Assembly (NCBI GenBank): GCA_000990585.1
Contig: LBQD01000002.1
Coordinates: 250,408 to 314,407 of the forward strand
DNA from: Candidatus Moranbacteria bacterium GW2011_GWE2_35_2-
GTDB lineage: Bacteria; Patescibacteriota; Minisyncoccia; Moranbacterales; UBA9337
Direction: 5' to 3'
Length of the DNA: 64,000 nt
The position numbers and the translations under genes were made by a program. This document shows, piece by piece, positions 3,025 to 55,939 of this stretch. The first letter of the stretch is position 1; every line of letters begins with the position of its first letter. The notes below the pieces were generated by a model. That model was given only the letters and a program-made list of their open reading frames with translations, searched no databases and had not been told where the DNA came from.

Positions 3025-6000
3025 ATGAGTGATAAAAAAACTTTTAAACTTGGAAGCGGGGATGCCGATAGAAATTTAGAAGAATTAAAAAAAATCCTTC
3101 CGGCAGAAAAAAATGGTTCGGAGATTTTGGAAATGGAAGAAAAAAAAATCGAGCGGATGTATGATGAAATTTCCGAAATTATTGGAAATACTTTTGAAGG
3201 TGAATTCAGAGAAAAAACAAAAAATATTTTCAGAAAAGATGCGGAGAATAAAGTAAAAGAAATAATAGATAATACGGAAAAGTTTGTATGCACAAAGGCG
3301 AAATCGGAAAAATGGTATGAAACGGATTTGTCAGAGGAAGATATGAAAAATAAAGTTAAGGAATGTATAAGAACAAATCTCAACAGTATTTCAGGAATAA
3401 AGAAATCAAAACTTTTTAAGGCTGCTGTTTTGGAGGCTGTTAAGGGACAAAAAAACGAAAAAGAAACGGAAAAAGGGATTAAAGAGGTGGCTGAAAAGGG
3501 AATAAAAAATGAGGATGTGAAAAATGAAGCTAAGGAAAAAGAATGGACAAAAAAAGACAAAGAACGTGAGGCGTTTTTCAAACTGGAAGGTGAATTCGGG
3601 AAAATAGGGACGGGATATGTGTATCAGCCGGAAGCCGGAGAAAAACAAAAAATTAAGATTAAATCTTATAAAATTATTTTTAATAAGAAAGGTGGAATTG
3701 ATTGGAATAATACGGAAGTGTTGTTTTTGCGCAATGGAAAACCAGACAGAAAAACCGTTGAAACTTTTCGCAATATTGTAGGCAAATCGAAAAAAATCGA
3801 AAAAAATCGAAAAGAAATTCCGCAAGAAATTGAAAATGAATTTCATTTATACGAAAAGTGGATTCCTGTCGATCGAAGTAAAGCAGGTTTTCGAATTGCT
3901 GATTATAATAATGGTGATTTTACTCTGGTATTTGATGTAAATAGAAAAAAACAAGACGAAAGAATAAAAAAAGTAAACATTAAAGAATTACGTCAAAGAA
4001 TTAAAGATGGAAAATATCAAATTGAAAGCTTGGTGGCAAGTGATGCAAATCTGAAGGTAAATCCTGGTAAAAAAAATAAGGATATGGATGCGGTTGGCGA
4101 TAGTGAAAATGTTGAAAAAAAGGAATATGACGCGGCGGAGTATTTGCATTTGACGGAAAAAACTTTTGGCGAGGATGGAAAGCAGATGACAAATTTGGAT
4201 TTTGCCAAAGCGGTTTTGTATTCTCAAGTTGGAAATTGGAAAGAATTGGATGCCGGTACTCCCCAAGAACGGGAGATAATCATCAATGACAAAATCCGGA
4301 AATTTTTTGTTGAAATGGGAGTTGCGGTGCATGGGTTAATTAAAAATGTTAAAGATAATGAAGGGCAAAAAGAACTTCAATTAAACGAAAAACCTGATTT
4401 GGACGGAAAAGCAACTCTTTTTCTTTTGAAAAAAGCGGGAATTGAAGTTAAATCTGATTCAAAAAAAGGAAATATTAAATATGTCATCCCTGGAACTCAT
4501 GCAATCGGTAAAATAACATTTGACAGTGGAATGGTGGATGGAGTGGAAATTCGTAAGGAACAAAATGAAAAAGGCGAATGGGTAATTTCCGTTATCGCGG
4601 ATCATCATGGCGATACATCGCCGCGGGACACGTCCGCTGCGGATGTTGCGTATCAAACTTTTTCTAAACTGGGGCTTTTTGAGGAATATTTCCAGAAAGA
4701 CGAAAAAAACAAAGAAAACTTGGAAAAATTGGTGCAGTTTATCAACCGAATCGACAATTTTGATTATCCGAACGGAAAAGAATATTTCGAAAATTATTTT
4801 CAGAATTCTTGGGATACGATTATGGGAGTTTCAAGAATGCTCGGACCGCAAAATTTTTTGGATTTTTTTGCCGATGGGCGCAGCATTGACGATGTTTCTA
4901 GAAGTATTTCTGAAATGCGTTTGTTGAAAAAGGATATGAGGCGGTATGGAATTTTGCAATTAAGGGATGTAAAGGACGCAGAAAAAGTAGATGAAATATT
5001 GAAAAATCAACAAATTGATCCGGAAAAAATCAAAAAAGGTGAGGAACTAACGAAAGAGCAAATGGCTGGTCTTGGCAAGGCGGGATTTCACTATGATAAA
5101 ACCAGAAAAGTGATTAGGGAATATGTAGATGTCAGACAAATGCAAGAAGAAAGAGTCAAGGAATCCCAGGCGGTTTTGATGGAAATGGAAAAAGACGGGC
5201 TTATTATTGAATCGGATCGTTTCGGGAAAATTGCGGTGGATATTGACGGTCGAGTCGAAACCGGTTCGGAGGCGGCGAGGGCTTTTGGGTGCGAAGCTTT
5301 TGTCCTTTGGAATCCGGAATATAATCGTTTTAGTGTCAATACTCTCGGCGGGAAAGAATTGATTGATCTTGTTGGGAATCTTTTGGCAAATAAATATAAT
5401 CAAGGGGTGGAAGTGCGAAAAACAATGTGGATAAAATCTCTTGCGGAAAAGGATGAGCCTTTGAATATAAAACTAGAAGATATTTTGGGTGAACTTACGG
5501 ACGGGAAATTTGCGCCGACAGGGAAATTGAAAGAGTATATTGAAAACGGGGAAAAATGGGGTGAAGAAGTGGAAAAAGGAGATGGAAGGGATGAAGAAAA
5601 AAAGGTGGCGAAGGAGAGCGAGAAAGACAAGGCTGAAGTTGTTTTTGATGAGAAAGGGGAATTGGAATTGGCAGATGGGATTGAAAGGGAGAACGCGAAA
5701 GAGAATATGAATATGGAAACAAGCGCAGAAACGGCAGTGGAAAGACCGGCTTTTGAAGCGGGAAATATGCCTTTGGCGGATTTTGAAAGGATGCAAAGAG
5801 AATTGGATGCCAGTCGGGAATTTTATGTGAAGTATAATCATGAATTCGAAAAGAAAAGGAATAATTTGGAAAAATATTTTGGAAAAATTGAAAATCCAAA
5901 TTTTTTCGGACAGGCGCAAGAAGAGGTGAAGAATTTGAAAGATTTGTATGATAAAAAATCAAAAGAATATGTAAAAGAATATTTGGCGACTATGCGAAAA

Positions 6001-7749: not shown

Positions 7750-10233
7750 ATGAATAGTTTTGATTTGAATTTAATTTTTTATCCACTACTTGCCGCCTTG
7801 TCTTTGATGACTTTTGTAACGGGTGTGTTTTTGGTTGTGCGCAGTTTTATTTCTTTTCGCGTTCAAATAAACTATTCTATGAATATGGATTTGGAGGTTA
7901 TTCGAGTGACGAAAAAAAATTATGCCAAAGGAGAATCCATGGATAATGGAGAAAGATGGAAAGAAGAAATCGGAGCAATGGAGCAATTACTTTCAACTCT
8001 GGCGAATATTAATAGAAATAAATCATTTTTTTCCGGAATTTTTTATGATGCTCCTTATATTTCTTTTGAAATTGCCAATCCTTCCGATAGTGAAGAGATA
8101 TTTTTCTATTTGGCAGTTCCTAAAAAATTCAAAGAACGCGTAGAAAAGCAGATTCATAGTTTTTTTCCGGATGCGTCTATAGAAAAGAATCCGGACTATA
8201 CCATATTTTCTCCCGGAAGTTTTACTTCAGCGGCAACTTTAGTATTGAAAAATAAGCATGAACTTCCCATTAAAACTTATGAAAATATGGAAACCGATCC
8301 GCTTAATGAAATTTCCAATGCGCTTAGCAAATTAAATACCAAGGAAGAAGGGGCGGCACTTCAAATAGTGCTCAGTCCTGCCGGGTCAGCATGGAGAGAA
8401 TCCGGTAAAGATATTGCGCATAAGATGCAACAAGGACAGCGACTCAAAGATGTCGGTTCAAATTCTTTTTTGAAAGATGTGAGCAGGGGGGTGGGAAAAG
8501 AAATGCAAAATATTGTTATGAAGCCAACGGGAGTGGTAGCGGATTCGAAAAATATTTTGGATAATGAAAAAGCTTTTCAACTTACTCCCGAGGAGCAAGA
8601 ATTGGTGAAATCTATTGAAAGAAAATCCAACAAGACCGGATTTTTGGTTAATATTCGATTGCTTGCTAGTGCTCGAACGCAGGAAAGAGCGGACGAAATT
8701 TTGGCGCATTTGGAAAATGCTTTTTCTCAATTTGAAAATCCGGAAGTGAATAATTTTAAGATTAAAAAAAGAACCAAGAAAAAGGATATTGCCTATCATT
8801 ATATTTTTCGAAATTTTAATGAGGAAAATTCTTTGATTTTGAATGTGGAAGAAGTGGCAAGTATTTTCCATTTTCCAATTTCCACGACTGAAACGCCTAA
8901 AATAAAATGGCTCAAGTCCGGAGCAGCGGCTCCACCGGTAAATATTCCGCAAGAAGGTGTTCTGCTTGGATATAATGATTATCGCGGGCAGAAAACCGAT
9001 ATTTATTTGGGAGACGGAGATAGAAGAAGGCATCTTTATACAATTGGACAAACCGGTGTCGGAAAATCAAATTTTCTGCAAGAAATGGTCAAACAGGATA
9101 TTAAAAATGGAAAAGGAGTTTGTTATATTGATCCTCACGGTGATGCAGTTGAAGACATACTTTCCTGTATTCCCAAAGAGCGCGCTGAAGATGTGATTAT
9201 TTTTAATCCGGCTGACACAGAGCGTCCTTTCGGTCTTAATATGCTTGAGTATTCTCGACCGGAAGAGAAGACTTTTGTGATCAATGAGATGATTGGAATT
9301 TTTGATAAACTTTATGATTTGAAAGCGACCGGAGGTCCGATGTTTGAACAATATGCCCGTAATGCAATGATGCTTATTATGGAGCATCCGGAGTCAGGAT
9401 CCACATTATTGGAAATTTCCAAGGTTTTGGCAGATGAAGATTTTCGAAAAATGAAATTGGAACACTGTGTTAATCCGGTTGTGCGGGATTTCTGGATCAA
9501 GGAAGCGGAAAAAGCCGGAGGAGAAGCGGCACTGGCGAATATGGTTCCGTATATTACTTCTAAGCTCACTACTTTTGTTGCTAATGATATGATGCGCCCG
9601 ATAATTTCTCAGCAGAAAAGTACTTTGAATTTTCGACAAATTATGGATGACAAAAAAATATTGCTTGTTAATCTTTCTAAAGGAAAATTGGGTGAAATAA
9701 ACAGCCACTTACTTGGAATGGTGATCGTGGGAAAAATTTTAATGGCAGCTCTTTCTCGCGTGGATATGCCGGAAGTTGAAAGAAAAGATTTTTATTTATA
9801 CATTGATGAGTTTCAAAATGTTACCACTGACTCTATCTCTCAAATTTTATCCGAAGCGCGAAAATATAAACTCAATCTTATTATAGCTCATCAATTTATC
9901 GGACAGCTTAGTGAAGAAATTTCCAAAGCAGTTTTTGGAAATGTCGGATCAATATGTGCTTTTCGAGTAGGACCGGAGGATGCGGAATTTTTGGAAAAAC
10001 AATTTGCTCCGGTTTTTTCTTCAAACGATTTGGTAAATGTGGATAATTATAATGCTTTTGCTAAAATTTTGGTCAATAATGAGTCAACTAAGCCGTTCAA
10101 TATTAAAACTTATCCTCCAACTTCCGGTGATCAAGAATTGGCAAACAATTTCAAAGAATTGTCGCGCTTGAAATATGGAAGAGATATTTCTATCATTAAT
10201 AAAGAAATTATAGAAAGAGGAAAAGCAAGATAA
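7750..10233 (+). CDS. Type IV secretion-type P-loop ATPase (TraG/VirD4/VirB4 superfamily; coupling-protein-like) with an N-terminal TM anchor
   Basis: N-terminal TM helix (IFYPLLAALSLMTFVTGVFLVV). Walker A is HLYTIGQTGVGKSNF and Walker B is YLYIDEFQNV. The downstream motif KLNLIIAHQFIGQLSEEISKAVFGNVGS resembles the TraG/VirD4/VirB4 QxxxQL...G motif. Confidence 0.6.
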   Translation: MNSFDLNLIFYPLLAALSLMTFVTGVFLVVRSFISFRVQINYSMNMDLEVIRVTKKNYAKGESMDNGERWKEEIGAMEQLLSTLANINRNKSFFSGIFYDAPYISFEIANPSDSEEIFFYLAVPKKFKERVEKQIHSFFPDASIEKNPDYTIFSPGSFTSAATLVLKNKHELPIKTYENMETDPLNEISNALSKLNTKEEGAALQIVLSPAGSAWRESGKDIAHKMQQGQRLKDVGSNSFLKDVSRGVGKEMQNIVMKPTGVVADSKNILDNEKAFQLTPEEQELVKSIERKSNKTGFLVNIRLLASARTQERADEILAHLENAFSQFENPEVNNFKIKKRTKKKDIAYHYIFRNFNEENSLILNVEEVASIFHFPISTTETPKIKWLKSGAAAPPVNIPQEGVLLGYNDYRGQKTDIYLGDGDRRRHLYTIGQTGVGKSNFLQEMVKQDIKNGKGVCYIDPHGDAVEDILSCIPKERAEDVIIFNPADTERPFGLNMLEYSRPEEKTFVINEMIGIFDKLYDLKATGGPMFEQYARNAMMLIMEHPESGSTLLEISKVLADEDFRKMKLEHCVNPVVRDFWIKEAEKAGGEAALANMVPYITSKLTTFVANDMMRPIISQQKSTLNFRQIMDDKKILLVNLSKGKLGEINSHLLGMVIVGKILMAALSRVDMPEVERKDFYLYIDEFQNVTTDSISQILSEARKYKLNLIIAHQFIGQLSEEISKAVFGNVGSICAFRVGPEDAEFLEKQFAPVFSSNDLVNVDNYNAFAKILVNNESTKPFNIKTYPPTSGDQELANNFKELSRLKYGRDISIINKEIIERGKAR

Positions 10234-24019: not shown

Positions 24020-24090
24020 GGTCCGATGGCGGAGTGGTTACGCAACGGTCTGCAAAACCGTGTACGCCGGTTCAATTCCGGCTCGGACCT
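24020..24090 (+). tRNA. tRNA-Cys (anticodon GCA)
   Basis: Acceptor stem GGTCCGA/TCGGACC, anticodon stem ACGGT/ACCGT with loop CTGCAAA, T-arm GCCGG-TTCAATT-CCGGC. No encoded CCA. Confidence 0.8.
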
Positions 24091-24103
24091 CGTTTTAAAA
24101 TAT

Positions 24104-24187
24104 GCCGCGGTGATGAAATTGGTATACATAGGAGACTTAAAATCTCCCGGTAGTGATACCGTGTGGGTTCGAGTCCCGCCCGCGGCA
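24104..24187 (+). tRNA. tRNA-Leu (anticodon TAA) with long variable arm
   Basis: Acceptor GCCGCGG/CCGCGGC, anticodon stem GGAGA/TCTCC with loop CTTAAAA, long variable arm, T-loop TTCGAGT. Confidence 0.8.
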
Positions 24188-24197
24188 CATATTGCAA

Positions 24198-24792: not shown

Positions 24793-25341
24793 TCATTTCA
24801 AATCATGAACGCGAATCAAATCAAATTTGTTATTTTCTATATTCCAAATGGCAAAAGTTGGCGGGAAAATTTCTCCGGCGACGTTGCCGGGATTGAGCAT
24901 TGTGCAATTGCCCACTTTCTCTGTCCAGGGTTTGTGCGTATGTCCGTAAAAAACGAAATCATATTTTCCGCTCTCGCAAAGCTTTTTGGCAATGTCCGGG
25001 AAATGAACAAAGGCTGTTTTCTTCCTATCAATGGAGGTTTCTCCATGATTTTTGAATAATTTGGCGTTTTTGTATTTTGGAATAAACTCAAAATTTTCAA
25101 GCTGTCCGTCGTCCATATTTCCGAAAGTAAAAAAAATCTCGCCGGAAAAATTGTCGCACAAAAAATCCAAAGTTTCCTCGGAAGCCAAATCCCCGCAACA
25201 GATTATTTTTTTAATTGAATTTCGAGCGCAATAATCCAAAACCTTTTTTAAATTGGTTTCATTGTTATGGATGTCGGAAATGATAGCGATTTTTGTGCTC
25301 GAAGTAAATATATTTTTTTTCATATGTTTAAATTTTAGCAA
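24793..25341 (-). CDS. Metallophosphoesterase (YfcE/MJ0936-like phosphodiesterase)
   Basis: Motifs ISDIHNN, CCGDL, GNMD and YGHTH of the calcineurin-like phosphoesterase family. Confidence 0.7.
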   Translation of the reverse strand: MLKFKHMKKNIFTSSTKIAIISDIHNNETNLKKVLDYCARNSIKKIICCGDLASEETLDFLCDNFSGEIFFTFGNMDDGQLENFEFIPKYKNAKLFKNHGETSIDRKKTAFVHFPDIAKKLCESGKYDFVFYGHTHKPWTEKVGNCTMLNPGNVAGEIFPPTFAIWNIENNKFDLIRVHDLK

Positions 25342-25402
25342 GAATTTTTTTGTTTTTCCAGTATTTTTACATATTTCTTAACTTTATCCACAGCATTTTA
25401 AT

Positions 25403-25723
25403 TTGTCAGAAAGCTTTTTTTGGGGTATTATTAGTGGAAATATTGGCGCAACAAAATATTGCGATGCGGCAGGAAATAATTGCAAGGCGATAACGGAGAT
25501 GAGTAATGGAACTGTTAGTGTAGTAAATGAAGGGAGAATACCTGCTAATGGTAGTTTTGGTTCATCTGGTCCGAAAAATTTAGGAGTTCATGATTTTTGT
25601 TTTTTTACTGATTTAACTTATAGTAGTGATGCTGGTCAATGTCGACTTTATAAAAGTGGATCGAATTGGTACATTCAGAGTTATTTAGGTGCTAGGTGTG
25701 GTGCTTATTGTGCTGATATCTAA
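25403..25723 (+). CDS. Hypothetical Cys-rich small protein (106 aa, TTG start in the track); doubtful gene
   Basis: Non-repetitive sequence with 6 Cys. No ATG start with an RBS. Lies next to palindrome copy 1. Confidence 0.2.
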   Translation: MSESFFWGIISGNIGATKYCDAAGNNCKAITEMSNGTVSVVNEGRIPANGSFGSSGPKNLGVHDFCFFTDLTYSSDAGQCRLYKSGSNWYIQSYLGARCGAYCADI

Positions 25724-25774
25724 TATTTTACCTGGAATAATTGTAATAGTAATAGTTTAGTCTTGTTTTGTTTT

Positions 25775-25809
25775 TTAATCAAGATATGGCAATTGCAATA
25801 TCTTGATTA
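25775..25809. promoter_or_regulatory. Palindromic motif copy 1: TTAATCAAGATATGGC-AATT-GCAATATCTTGATTA (15-bp arms, one mismatch)
   Basis: Read directly from the sequence. The core GCAATTGC is flanked by TTAATCAA / TTGATTAA. Confidence 0.6.
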
Positions 25810-25874
25810 GATAGATTGTGGGGAAAATTATTATTTTTTGGATTTTTTATTCAGGTTAAATGATAACATTTTAA

Positions 25875-26537
25875 TCACAAATTGAAAAATTCTTCAATTT
25901 TTTCTTGGTGTAAAAGTTTTTCCGCGGTTATAATCTCGATGTTTTTTTGGACATTGAAAAGTTCGGAAATAAATAGGATTTCATCTTCGCATTCATAAGG
26001 ATAAACCCATACGCTTTTTTGTATTTGGTAGAATCCCAATTCTTTGATTTTTCTTCTCAATGCTTCGCGCGCTTGGTGGTATCTTTTCGGTTTGGCTGGA
26101 ATATCAAAAATCAAGATTCGCCATTTTTTGTCCCATTTTTTCGGTTTTGCGATATCTAAAAGATCAAAGGAAAATTCTTTGATTCTTTTTTGTCCCTTAT
26201 TGGTTAAGCGTACTTCGTATTTTTCTTTTCCTATTTTAATAATCTCAATTAATTTTCTTTGTTTCAAGTTATTGAAAGCGGTTTGTATTTGTTTCTTGGA
26301 ATATTTCTTGTGTTTTTTGAATTTTCCCATTCCGGAAAGTATATTCGGAGCGGCTGCCGCGACAACGAAAAGGGGAGCGGCGAGAACGGCAGCCAGTAAA
26401 AATTTTCCGGCAGTGGCAGTAATGCCGTCATTATACAAAAATTTATCTTCAATTGTCTTTTTGATGTTAATTACTTCTTTTCTCTTTTTTGTTTGTTTTT
26501 TTTGCATGATTATATTTTTTGGTTTCCGATAATGCAA
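25875..26537 (-). CDS. Membrane-anchored PaaX-family-like transcriptional regulator (wHTH plus PaaX C-terminal domain)
   Basis: N-terminal Ala-rich hydrophobic helix. wHTH-like region EVRLTNKGQKRI. C-terminal WDKKWRILIFDIPAKPKRYHQAREALRRKIKELGFYQIQKSVWVYP matches the PaaX C-terminal pattern (W..YDIP...R..LR..L..LGFG.L..SVW..P). The track start is a TTG; an ATG 10 codons in (near 26507) is more likely. Confidence 0.5.
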   Translation of the reverse strand: MHYRKPKNIIMQKKQTKKRKEVINIKKTIEDKFLYNDGITATAGKFLLAAVLAAPLFVVAAAAPNILSGMGKFKKHKKYSKKQIQTAFNNLKQRKLIEIIKIGKEKYEVRLTNKGQKRIKEFSFDLLDIAKPKKWDKKWRILIFDIPAKPKRYHQAREALRRKIKELGFYQIQKSVWVYPYECEDEILFISELFNVQKNIEIITAEKLLHQEKIEEFFNL

Positions 26538-26545
26538 ATAATTGT

Positions 26546-26581
26546 TTAATCAATCTATGGCAATTGCGAATAATTGATTAA
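26546..26581. promoter_or_regulatory. Palindromic motif copy 2 (TTAATCAATCTATGGCAATTGCGAATAATTGATTAA) immediately upstream of the PaaX-like gene
   Basis: Same GCAATTGC core and TTAATCAA/TTGATTAA ends as copy 1. Confidence 0.55.
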
Positions 26582-26652
26582 CTCTTCCATGGTTGATTTT
26601 TTTAAAAATAGTTCTGAGAAAATATATTAAACTTAATGCAATTATACATTCT

Positions 26653-26686
26653 TAATCAAAATATTGCAATTGCCACAGATTGATTA
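26653..26686. promoter_or_regulatory. Palindromic motif copy 3 (TTAATCAAAATATTGCAATTGCCACAGATTGATTA)
   Basis: Same architecture as copies 1 and 2, about 105 bp further upstream of the regulator gene. Confidence 0.55.
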
Positions 26687-26720
26687 TTAAAGGTGATTTA
26701 TGGAAAGTATTTTTTTTATT

Positions 26721-27557
26721 TCATTTTTGATTGATATTATTGCGCAATGATTTTAAGAGTTGGATGTCTTCTTTGACTTTTTCGTGTTCGGTTTCGAGGA
26801 TTAGGTTGATGTTATTTTCTTCGGCGAATTTTATTATTTTTTCAAAAGCTTTCATTCCGATTTCTCCTTTTCCGATGTGTTCATGGCGGTCGATGTGAGA
26901 GGCGCAATCAGATTTGCTGTCATTGGCATGGATCAGTTTAACTTTTTCCAAGCCAATTTCTTGGTCGATTTTTTTGAGGGTATTCTCAAAATCCCGCCAG
27001 TCGTATCCGCTGGCGAAACTGTGCTGGGTGTCCAGGCAAATTCCGTTGAGTTTCGGGTGGTTTACGTTTTTGATTATTTCGGATATTTGCGAAAAAGTCG
27101 CACCAATAATTTTTCCTGCTCCCGCGCTATTTTCAATAAGAAGTTCGGCGGATCCGTCATAATTGTTTAATGTTTTGGTCAACATTTCGGAAACTTTTTT
27201 TGTGGCTTCTTGTTCGGAAAGTTCGCCGGCACTGCCAAGATGAGTCATTACATATTTTGCTCCCAGAAGACTGGCACGTTCCAGTTCATCGCGTACAACG
27301 CTTGCGCTGCCATAGCGGATACGATTATTGGTGGAAGTGAAATTGATGTAGTAGGGAGTATGGATATATATTGTGGAAATTTTAAATTTTAAATTTTCAG
27401 TTTTAAATGACAGGATGATATTTTTTGTAAGTTCAAGGGCTTTGCCGCCTTGCGGTGAGCGAGTAAAAATTTGCATTATTTCACACTTCAAATCCGCTGC
27501 TCTTTGGGGAGCTTTATTAATTCCTCCGGCAATAGAAATATGGCAACCTATTTTCAT
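26721..27557 (-). CDS. nfo: Endonuclease IV (AP endonuclease, xylose-isomerase-like TIM barrel)
   Basis: Conserved His/Asp/Glu metal-ligand blocks: HxxY early, LLIEN, CLDTxH and ILETE. Confidence 0.85.
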   Translation of the reverse strand: MKIGCHISIAGGINKAPQRAADLKCEIMQIFTRSPQGGKALELTKNIILSFKTENLKFKISTIYIHTPYYINFTSTNNRIRYGSASVVRDELERASLLGAKYVMTHLGSAGELSEQEATKKVSEMLTKTLNNYDGSAELLIENSAGAGKIIGATFSQISEIIKNVNHPKLNGICLDTQHSFASGYDWRDFENTLKKIDQEIGLEKVKLIHANDSKSDCASHIDRHEHIGKGEIGMKAFEKIIKFAEENNINLILETEHEKVKEDIQLLKSLRNNINQK

Positions 27558-41437: not shown

Positions 41438-41514
41438 TTTTTGGAATTTTTTTACAAACTGATTGTTGGGTAGATAGAGAAAATCAGATTAGTTTTATAT
41501 TTTGGTATTTTTCA

Positions 41515-41553
41515 AATATTACCATATTACGAAATATGGTAATATTTTTTTAT
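41515..41553 (+). terminator. Long AU-rich hairpin (14-bp perfect inverted repeat AATATTACCATATT/AATATGGTAATATT) plus T7; candidate terminator after recJ
   Basis: Seen directly. Shares the TTACCAT...ATGGTAA core with the palindrome at 55900. Confidence 0.5.
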
Positions 41554-55899: not shown

Positions 55900-55939
55900 A
55901 ATTTACCATTTAGAAACGGTCGTTTCTAAATGGTAAATT
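55900..55939. repeat. 40-bp near-perfect palindrome AATTTACCATTTAGAAACG-gt-CGTTTCTAAATGGTAAATT
   Basis: 19-bp perfect arms seen directly. No flanking U-run. Confidence 0.6.

Follow-up and report, generated by a model that had tools for sequence, protein, structure and literature searches.

Three palindromes surround a single regulator gene in a 64,000-nucleotide stretch of the genome of Candidatus Moranbacteria bacterium GW2011_GWE2_35_2- (GenBank contig LBQD01000002.1, positions 250,408 to 314,407; hereafter the window). We conclude that they are very probably DNA sites bound by the protein encoded between them, a small relative of the regulator PaaX that we call mini-PaaX. We hold direct binding of the palindromes by the enclosed protein to be highly probable, with protein and sites covarying across relatives. 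The combined picture is one in which the protein reads cognate operators, represses itself from a site on the −35 element of its own promoter and sits in an exchangeable cassette, and to this we assign a probability of roughly 0.65. The site–gene–site unit recurs across the ultra-small bacteria of the candidate phyla radiation (CPR), with many matched specificities, and behaves as a movable module. The operators at both ends, the recognition code and the dynamics of the cassette would be unexpected to a specialist; the core mechanism follows that of a known family. In the literature we found no description of the mini-PaaX family or of the site–gene–site layout.

The Patescibacteria (CPR) have tiny genomes and few known regulators. 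The mini-PaaX family numbers at least 2200 clusters at 50% identity, and one genome often has several of its paralogues; it supplies dozens of naturally orthogonal protein–operator pairs with a readable code, of use for the study of winged-helix specificity and as parts for synthetic biology. The Cas2-like domain of the protein is apparently a DNA-facing dimer core, which bears on the relationship between PaaX, VapD and Cas2. Operators at both ends, together with gain and exchange as a block, suggest that regulators can behave as selfish or accessory cassettes.

Three palindromes around one gene

The initial annotation of the window, made from the sequence alone, described three palindromes of about 35 bp bracketing a membrane-anchored PaaX-like regulator, and three sites of 36 bp were indeed recovered. 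A search with the pattern TTAATCAA-N6-GCAATTGC-N6-TTGATTAA, allowing up to three mismatches, gave exactly three matches in the window (Table 1) and none in 100 dinucleotide-preserving shuffles of it. The core GCAATTGC is found just once more in the window, and the outer octamer by itself is not over-represented there. Copy 1 is nearly perfect, as described, with 16 of 17 arm positions paired, and it lies between two stop codons: that of the regulator (25875), from which it is separated by 65 nt, and that of a convergent 106-aa open reading frame (ORF; 25723). On the downstream side it delimits the module. Symmetry is lower in copies 2 and 3 (13–14 of 17 positions paired), which retain the outer boxes and the core. 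Both were correctly placed at the 5′ side of the gene. Copy 2 falls within the predicted 5′ untranslated region and its near end is 38 nt from the ATG, and copy 3 follows the stop codon of the upstream nfo-like gene after 34 nt. In the public annotation of the same genome (LBSS01000002.1) the same 210-aa gene and convergent 106-aa ORF are called.

The enclosed protein

The regulator carries the central, Cas2-like domain of PaaX, PaaX_M (PF20803), at aa 123–202, with a Pfam score of 70.2 bits against a cutoff of 24 (E = 1.6e-19). The PaaX-type C-terminal domain proposed initially is therefore PaaX-related, but it is PaaX_M and not PaaX_C: the latter, the effector (phenylacetyl-CoA) domain, has no Pfam match and the protein ends eight residues past PaaX_M. 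Nor did Pfam return a PaaX N-domain at E ≤ 0.1, and winged-helix matches at aa 63–107 are faint. The NCBIfam model for PaaX (TIGR02277) matches locally, aa 69–182 against model positions 32–138, with 34 bits and a cutoff of 264.55. The Cas2 model TIGR01573 scores 21.1 bits, just under its cutoff of 24.5, with aa 129–171 aligned; weak Cas2 profile matches over these residues come from both NCBIfam and PADLOC. The protein contains the Cas2-type motifs FDIP and QKSVW. In an alignment of 30 sequences the FDIP aspartate, D135, is invariant; it corresponds to the conserved aspartate after strand 1 of the Cas2 fold and aligns with the conserved Cas2 YDI motif. The cluster Y171-x-C173-x-D175 is likewise invariant.

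An AlphaFold model built on 30 homologues gives the Cas2-like domain with high confidence (predicted local distance difference test, pLDDT, about 90), a helix at aa 71–83 followed by a β-hairpin wing with moderate confidence, and an isolated helix at aa 30–46 with low confidence. Foldseek comparison with the Protein Data Bank (PDB) places Cas2 chains on top, with VapD and E. coli PaaX (8a39) also among the matches; PDB sequence searches with the profile and with the domain gave nothing useful. The Cas2-like domain is presumed to be the dimerisation module, and it may contact the palindrome core. Ahead of the helix lies a hydrophobic segment, the predicted membrane anchor. In each of the 101 non-redundant family members the best 19-aa Kyte–Doolittle mean reaches 1.69 or more, with a median of 2.15. 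The net charge is −1 on the N-terminal side of this segment and +3 on the C-terminal side, and the C-terminal side is the more positive in 90% of the family; the predicted topology has the N-terminus outside and the C-terminus inside.

Homologues are numerous: more than 1100 matches in a word-indexed search, and 2223 clusters at 50% identity (E ≤ 1e-10) in an exhaustive one. PF20803 is present in all 120 homologues listed, and the family is almost confined to the Patescibacteria.

Matched palindromes in relatives

For 80 genomic and 80 metagenomic loci we sought the best 34-bp palindrome within 330 bp upstream of the gene and within 330 bp downstream of it. The two were copies of each other at 66 of the 81 loci taken first, and at 111 of the 137 with at least 150 nt of flank on both sides. 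This matched layout persists down to 39% protein identity. The outer 7-bp boxes are specific to the locus (TAATCAA, TAGTCAA, CTCTCAA, TATGCTA, GTTACAA, GCTTGTA, TCCCCTA, ATTACAC, TACCTCA), and the core, G-C-(ATAT/AATT/GATC/CATG)-G-C, is conserved throughout. Across loci, pairing amounts to 85–98% in the outer box (positions 1–7) and core (positions 14–17) and to 67–73% in the 6-bp spacer, where changes between the two sites of one locus are mostly one-sided. Pairing is also kept at one further position beyond the 34-mer, so that the real length of the site is 36 bp; longer hairpins were rejected, with pairing at chance level past position 18.

The upstream dyad typically lies 46–82 nt 5′ of the start codon and the downstream dyad 37–69 nt 3′ of the stop codon, with a median distance of 743 bp from one to the other. 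Among 122 loci, 86 have exactly two sites in about 8.5 kb, 19 have three, as in the window, and nine have four to six. The closest relatives (loci L081, L001 and L002) share with the window the presence of two upstream sites. Genomes often hold two to four paralogues of the gene, each with a different box; the window contains no second paralogue.

At locus L061 (708–4692) six copies of the local palindrome, GCTTGTAATTTGTGCATATGCACAAATTACAAGC, lie among small genes for secreted or membrane proteins around the regulator, an array that could be a local regulon or a set of cassettes, and at L022 a 321-aa neighbour is bracketed by two sites. The most frequent neighbour of the cassette is a TrmB-family regulator of about 250 aa (35 of 125 loci, median distance about 580 bp; for example L008 2815–3669, L081 11707–12441 and L167 3509–4306), and none adjoins the window's copy.

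Covariation of protein and site

Matching every protein to the half-site consensus at its locus yielded 101 non-redundant pairs. The highest corrected mutual information with outer-box positions 2–7 was found for residues 76, 79, 80, 83 and 84, which lie on one face of the predicted recognition helix. The combination Y-N-K-R goes with TAGTCAA, N-N-Q-R with TAATCAA and E-Y-K-K with AGTACTT, and arginine at residue 84 goes with TCAA in the box. As a control for phylogeny we compared 42 independent sister pairs. R84 changed in 10 of the 11 pairs with a change at box position 6 and in 6 of the 31 pairs without one (p = 5e-5), and both T76 (p = 0.007) and Q83 (p = 0.015) were associated with box position 4. 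The core varies together with residues 138 and 148, both in the Cas2-like domain: T138 accompanies GCAT in 41 of 42 cases, and alanine or serine at this position accompanies GCAA or GCGA. In sister pairs the core covariation is weaker than the helix–box signal (p = 0.026 and 0.001).

The covariation of helix with box, and of residues 138 and 148 with core, points to direct recognition of double-stranded DNA, and is what would be expected if a symmetric dimer read the duplex. We envisage one dimer straddling each 36-bp site. Its two recognition helices would lie on the 7-bp outer boxes (TAATCAA / TTGATTA), 27 bp apart, and the Cas2-like core, which probably makes the dimer, would lie over the central GCAATTGC. 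Such an arrangement agrees with that of E. coli PaaX, the one relative to have been characterised. Both this geometry and the insertion of the anchor in the membrane are predictions.

Predicted promoter and probable autorepression

The initial annotation had noted the closeness of copy 2 to the start of the gene; the best predicted promoter is at copy 3, not copy 2. There, on the minus strand, TTGCAA (26669–26664) and TATAAT (26646–26641) are separated by a 17-nt spacer, and the −35 hexamer TTGCAA is the right half of the copy 3 dyad core. Transcription of the regulator is predicted to start near 26634. The −10 hexamer begins 6 nt after the 34-bp palindrome of copy 3, which is the modal offset of the family: of 96 loci, 50 have a −10-like hexamer beyond the upstream palindrome, reading in the gene's direction (background 10%), with a sharp mode 5–6 nt past the 34-mer and often with TG before it. 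An offset of 5–6 nt places the dyad near −35.5 and the site at approximately −53 to −18.

Because the −35 region of this promoter lies under copy 3, bound protein would be expected to shut off its own transcription. In E. coli, PaaX recognises TGATTC-N27-GAATCA and keeps RNA polymerase away from Px, the promoter of its own gene, which is thereby repressed (PMC9493321); by analogy, the upstream site on the −35 element would fit autorepression, and repression seems the probable outcome rather than activation. The autoregulated operator set suggested by the initial annotation is supported by the matched layout in relatives, the covariation of helix and box, and the overlap of the upstream site with the −35 element.

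Copy 2, in the 5′ leader, and copy 1, past the stop codon, would serve as auxiliary operators, most likely giving stronger repression through cooperative binding or looping, or acting as roadblocks that insulate the gene from neighbouring transcription. Copy 2 may have a roadblock or cooperative role; the downstream site may loop with the upstream operator, act as a roadblock or form the end of an element. The downstream site is clearly under selection, since it follows every change of specificity. Downstream neighbours are co-directional at 41 loci and convergent at 39, and a −10 box accompanies the downstream palindrome in 6 of the 41 and 7 of the 39, on which grounds we rejected the idea that it is the operator of the next gene. 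We also rejected the idea that it replaces an intrinsic terminator: GC-rich hairpins occur at 3 of 16 loci without the site and 9 of 85 with it (p = 0.40).

Gain, loss and exchange of the cassette

The operator–gene–operator unit has the look of an accessory cassette, one that genomes acquire, lose and exchange as a single block, with its boundaries at the outer palindromes. This conclusion follows from the lower third-position divergence inside the unit, from shared cassettes in unrelated contexts and from empty sites. Compared with L081, the closest other genome, the window is 91.4% identical in DNA between the outer edge of copy 3 and a point 17 nt beyond copy 1, and 70–80% identical in the flanking genes. 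At third codon positions the regulator is 85% identical, and IF2, RbfA, DHH, nfo, phosphoesterase and UDG are 52–65% identical. The non-coding parts of the cassette are 88–90% identical to those of L081, and the sequence just outside is at the random level. Four other pairs of loci have the same third-position excess inside the cassette, and two pairs do not.

The cassettes of L013 and L014, which come from the same metagenome-assembled genome, are 97% identical in unrelated flanks, and those of L017 and L021 are 86% identical, again with unrelated flanks; L013/L014 was the only near-identical pair found. The copy at L014 (JAQTLF010000029.1, gene ~4001–4354) has a premature stop, leaving 117 aa, and may be a decaying duplicate of the L013 cassette. 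In these and other pairs, similarity breaks off within 16 nt of the palindromes. Contig ends are about threefold enriched within 200 nt outside palindromes, a weak effect to which assembly bias may contribute.

In 11–13 Moranbacteria the cassette lies between nfo and a phosphoesterase–UDG pair, always in the same orientation. In three related Moranbacteria this junction is empty (Table 1): just 1, 2 or 42 nt separate nfo from the phosphoesterase gene and no palindrome is present, so that the window's cassette occupies an operon junction that is tight elsewhere. A few kilobases from one of these empty junctions, at L168, are a LAGLIDADG-type ORF and an rve-type integrase fragment (5082–5789 and 8238–8357). 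In a fourth relative, L167, the junction is taken up by genes for a radical SAM and a TrmB-like protein and by a 110-aa ORF. Empty and occupied genomes are intermingled on a rough tree of the backbone.

L081 also contains an extra 1.1-kb segment (8684–9857), absent from the window, with the same 34-bp palindrome at either end. Its 196-aa product, a secreted protein, has a signal peptide and, at the C-terminus, a PEP-CTERM-like anchor (...PLPASALLFGSVLSGLIVIRRKR). The segment appears richer in GC than the DNA around it. Elsewhere in L081 (10747–10944), and in L082 (920–1117), is a 66-residue nfo-like C-terminal fragment (45% identity, E = 1.5e-14); it begins 14 nt past the downstream palindrome and suggests an old rearrangement at the site.

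The initial annotation had offered as an alternative a small mobile unit delimited by inverted repeats, and had asked whether regulator and palindromes move as a cassette. Empty junctions and near-identical cassettes in unrelated contexts lend the possible mobile unit real support, as does a cassette younger than its flanks. Fragility of the palindromes, recombination at the sites and an activity of the protein itself are all possible routes.

Weighing the alternatives

The last of these routes is the most far-reaching. Mini-PaaX might also be the nuclease or recombinase of its cassette, with the Cas2-like domain, placed on the palindrome dyad, cutting or joining DNA at the two ends, much as a transposase binds its terminal repeats and represses the promoter that it has in the upstream one. 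This would make of the unit a minimal selfish element, in which the Cas2-like domain on the dyad would promote cutting, exchange or insertion, a Cas2-type counterpart of the Cas1-based casposons. Such an element would explain the scar-free empty junctions in relatives, the breakpoints at palindromes and a cassette younger than its flanks. It also fits with a gene bracketed by sites in 81% of loci, with near-identical cassettes in unrelated contexts, and with the 1.1-kb cargo of L081 between its identical 34-mers. Within the protein, D135 aligned with the YDI motif of Cas2, the invariant Y171-x-C173-x-D175, and residue 138, which lies three positions past D135 and covaries with the dyad centre, could be read in the same sense. 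However, searches of Pfam, NCBIfam, PHROGs and PADLOC gave no known recombinase or transposase domain, a genome normally holds a single copy of each specific cassette, and neither target-site duplications nor direct repeats were observed at its edges. The 11–13 syntenic loci all share one orientation, a membrane anchor would be odd for a transposase, and long palindromes can by themselves cause breakpoints. The reported nuclease activities of Cas2 and VapD are weak and non-specific, which weighs further against self-mobilisation. We consider it unlikely that the protein drives its own movement, doubt likewise the minimal selfish element, and think a casposon counterpart improbable; if the protein does drive its own movement, this would be a new class of mobile element. 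An invertible segment of the Hin/hix type was rejected, given the fixed orientation in the 11–13 nfo...phosphoesterase loci and the lack of a recombinase domain. A phage origin was rejected too, no relatives having been found in the viral contigs searched and PHROGs matches being weak, as was a defence system, for which PADLOC gave weak Cas2 matches only.

If the protein does bind the sites, it might still activate the promoter, in a class II-like manner, from the site overlapping −35. The core that replaces the −35 element is in most loci a poor match to TTGACA (ATGCAN) and many of the promoters have a TG-extended −10, a combination typical of activator-dependent or −35-independent promoters. 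Yet the dyad lies near −35.5, not −41.5, and a site from about −53 to −18 would be expected to keep sigma region 4 out; in the window itself the −35, TTGCAA, is a good one, and the precedent of PaaX is repression by steric hindrance (PMC9493321). Activation is for these reasons not a likely outcome. The palindromes might instead act in RNA, as hairpins at the 5′ and 3′ ends of the messenger that serve as stabilisers, terminators or RNA sites for the Cas2-like domain. Copy 1 does fold strongly as RNA (−15.3 kcal/mol, z = −8.4), compensatory changes keep the palindromes perfect at some loci, and the Cas2/VapD fold binds RNA in other proteins. However, G-U pairs are not in excess over A-C mismatches on the sense strand (29 versus 34 upstream, 35 versus 24 downstream), most changes in the spacer affect one side, the folding of copies 2 and 3 is weak (z = −3.5 and −1.7), Rfam gave no match, and no T-run follows the hairpins, where a terminator scan finds nothing. 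These observations make an RNA role very unlikely. The promoter, moreover, lies downstream of the upstream palindrome, so that the upstream copy is not transcribed from it, and the covariation involves a DNA-reading helix.

Some other factor, a host Xer-type recombinase or the adjacent TrmB-like regulator, might recognise the sites, the enclosed gene being a passenger. Site-flanked modules moved by host recombinases are known elsewhere, pdif modules among them, and at 35 of 125 loci a neighbouring gene is TrmB-like. Against this, the boxes differ among the paralogues of one genome and track the helix residues of the enclosed protein itself, the window has no TrmB neighbour and 72% of loci lack one; we find the idea hard to credit. 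A generic dispersed repeat, of the repetitive extragenic palindromic (REP) or miniature inverted-repeat transposable element (MITE) kind, or a chance similarity, has in its favour only the palindromic form and deserves next to no weight. The number of matches expected by chance is zero, there are no further copies in the 64 kb, and in most relatives a locus has two sites, which always lie at the gene and are locus-specific in sequence. With three copies in 64 kb, all at the gene, and no match to an HUH Y1 transposase in Pfam or NCBIfam, a REP or MITE repeat was rejected. The initial annotation had named dispersal of the motif over hundreds of unrelated sites, and palindromes persisting where the ORF is lost or disrupted, as findings that would speak against a regulator with its operators; within the 64 kb the motif is not dispersed, and ORF and palindromes occur together.

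Direct recognition of the sites by mini-PaaX, with autorepression in an exchangeable cassette, has points that weigh against it as well. A recognisable −10 box stands at the expected offset in only about half of the upstream sites, and the downstream site has no promoter link comparable to that of the upstream site; a looping role for it is a guess. The only known targets of the regulator flank its own gene, which leaves no obvious cellular output. The initial annotation had proposed a transmembrane helix and a winged helix-turn-helix. The evidence for the former is hydropathy, and the latter is incomplete in the model, with one helix and a wing at a pLDDT of about 70. It is possible that the hydrophobic segment does not truly span the membrane, because in a BLASTP comparison with an approximate E. 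coli PaaX sequence, which is a lead only, it aligns with PaaX helices 1–2 and seems to take their place. The covariation of residue 138 with the core is weak after control for phylogeny (p = 0.026), and the higher synonymous identity inside the cassette holds in 5 of about 9 informative pairs, not in all. The source organism, finally, is an uncultured member of the Moranbacteria.

Comparison with known systems

PaaX of E. coli and Pseudomonas (PDB 8a39, 3L09), which responds to phenylacetyl-CoA, has a winged-helix element followed by a Cas2-like domain; in mini-PaaX a predicted recognition helix and wing precede such a domain. Its operator is also built of two inverted boxes far apart, TGATTC-N27-GAATCA in E. 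coli, as compared with 7-bp boxes 20–22 bp apart here; judged by its sequence, the mini-PaaX site would belong among operators made of widely spaced inverted boxes over the protein's own promoter. Repression of that promoter by steric hindrance, established for PaaX (PMC9493321), is predicted for mini-PaaX. In contrast to PaaX, mini-PaaX lacks the PaaX_C effector domain and has no paa genes nearby; it has a predicted N-terminal hydrophobic anchor and retains the Cas2-type motifs FDIP and QKSVW, its site includes a conserved central core, and its operators lie on both sides of the gene. Mini-PaaX is not a PaaX orthologue, since it has no effector domain, no paa genes and a score far below the cutoff.

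The Cas2 and VapD ferredoxin-fold nucleases are the best fold matches to the C-terminal domain, and the strand 1 aspartate is conserved. Unlike them, the mini-PaaX domain is fused to a predicted DNA-reading helix and membrane anchor, and it has no known nuclease activity. We saw no CRISPR array and no cas1 in the loci examined, and no cas genes among the neighbour clusters of 125 loci.

Insertion sequences with a self-repressing transposase offer a further parallel, for their transposase binds the terminal repeats and represses its own promoter in the left end. The covariation and the position of the promoter suggest the same arrangement here, with terminal sites for the cassette's own protein on both sides of the gene and a promoter overlapping the upstream site. 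Like insertion sequences, the cassette appears in unrelated contexts and relatives have empty sites. The cassette differs in that each of its ends is itself palindromic, in having no DDE, HUH, serine or tyrosine catalytic domain, and in being normally single-copy and long-lasting in one syntenic slot, with no target duplications seen.

The membrane-tethered regulators ToxR, CadC and TcpP use one hydrophobic span to keep a DNA-binding domain on the inner side of the membrane, as predicted for mini-PaaX. In mini-PaaX, however, the order is reversed, with the anchor N-terminal and the DNA-binding domain C-terminal, the fold is different, and the external tail of about 30 residues holds no sensor domain. 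Lambdoid immunity regions and type II toxin–antitoxin systems are likewise co-evolving, exchangeable repressor–operator modules with palindromic autoregulation, and in them too the paralogues of one genome have orthogonal specificities. Mini-PaaX differs from these in consisting of one gene that has neither a toxin or antitoxin partner nor a phage context (the viral scan was negative).

Features and neighbouring genes of the window

Table 1. Sites, gene parts and junctions discussed in the text, with window coordinates unless a locus is named.
Feature	Position	Strand	Basis or remark
Copy 1, downstream operator (predicted)	25775-25810	.	pattern search, 1 mismatch
Copy 2, proximal upstream operator (predicted)	26546-26581	.	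pattern search, 0 mismatches
Copy 3, distal upstream operator (predicted)	26652-26687	.	pattern search, 1 mismatch
Predicted regulator promoter	26641-26669	-	consensus scan, 10/12 matches
Regulator gene, 210 aa, ATG start	25875-26507	-	ORF list; PaaX_M match
Hydrophobic segment, aa 33-56, predicted membrane anchor	26340-26411	-	hydropathy
Recognition helix (predicted), aa 71-85	26253-26297	-	model helix 71-83, covariation
Cas2-like (PaaX_M) domain, aa 123-202	25902-26141	-	Pfam, structure model, Foldseek, PADLOC
Cysteine-rich 106-aa ORF	25403-25723	+	converges on regulator
Empty nfo/phosphoesterase junctions	L166 4990-5005; L168 2854-2857; L169 4958-5001		relatives of window 25341-26721

The neighbours of the regulator in the window are nfo, phosphoesterase, UDG and IF2, and paa genes are absent among them. 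The cysteine-rich 106-aa ORF that converges on the regulator has no match in Pfam, NCBIfam, PHROGs or PADLOC, and in L081 other ORFs stand in its place. Just past the UDG gene, about 1.6 kb from the cassette, lie tRNA-Cys(GCA) and tRNA-Leu(TAA) (24020–24188, plus strand). Two further palindromes of the window, at 55903–55936 and 41514–41547, are single copies unrelated to the sites of the regulator. They are TTACCATTTAGAAACGGTCGTTTCTAAATGGTAA, after an ndk-like gene, and AAATATTACCATATTACGAAATATGGTAATATTT, between two plus-strand ORFs; each has 16 of 17 positions paired, and they may be terminators or operators.

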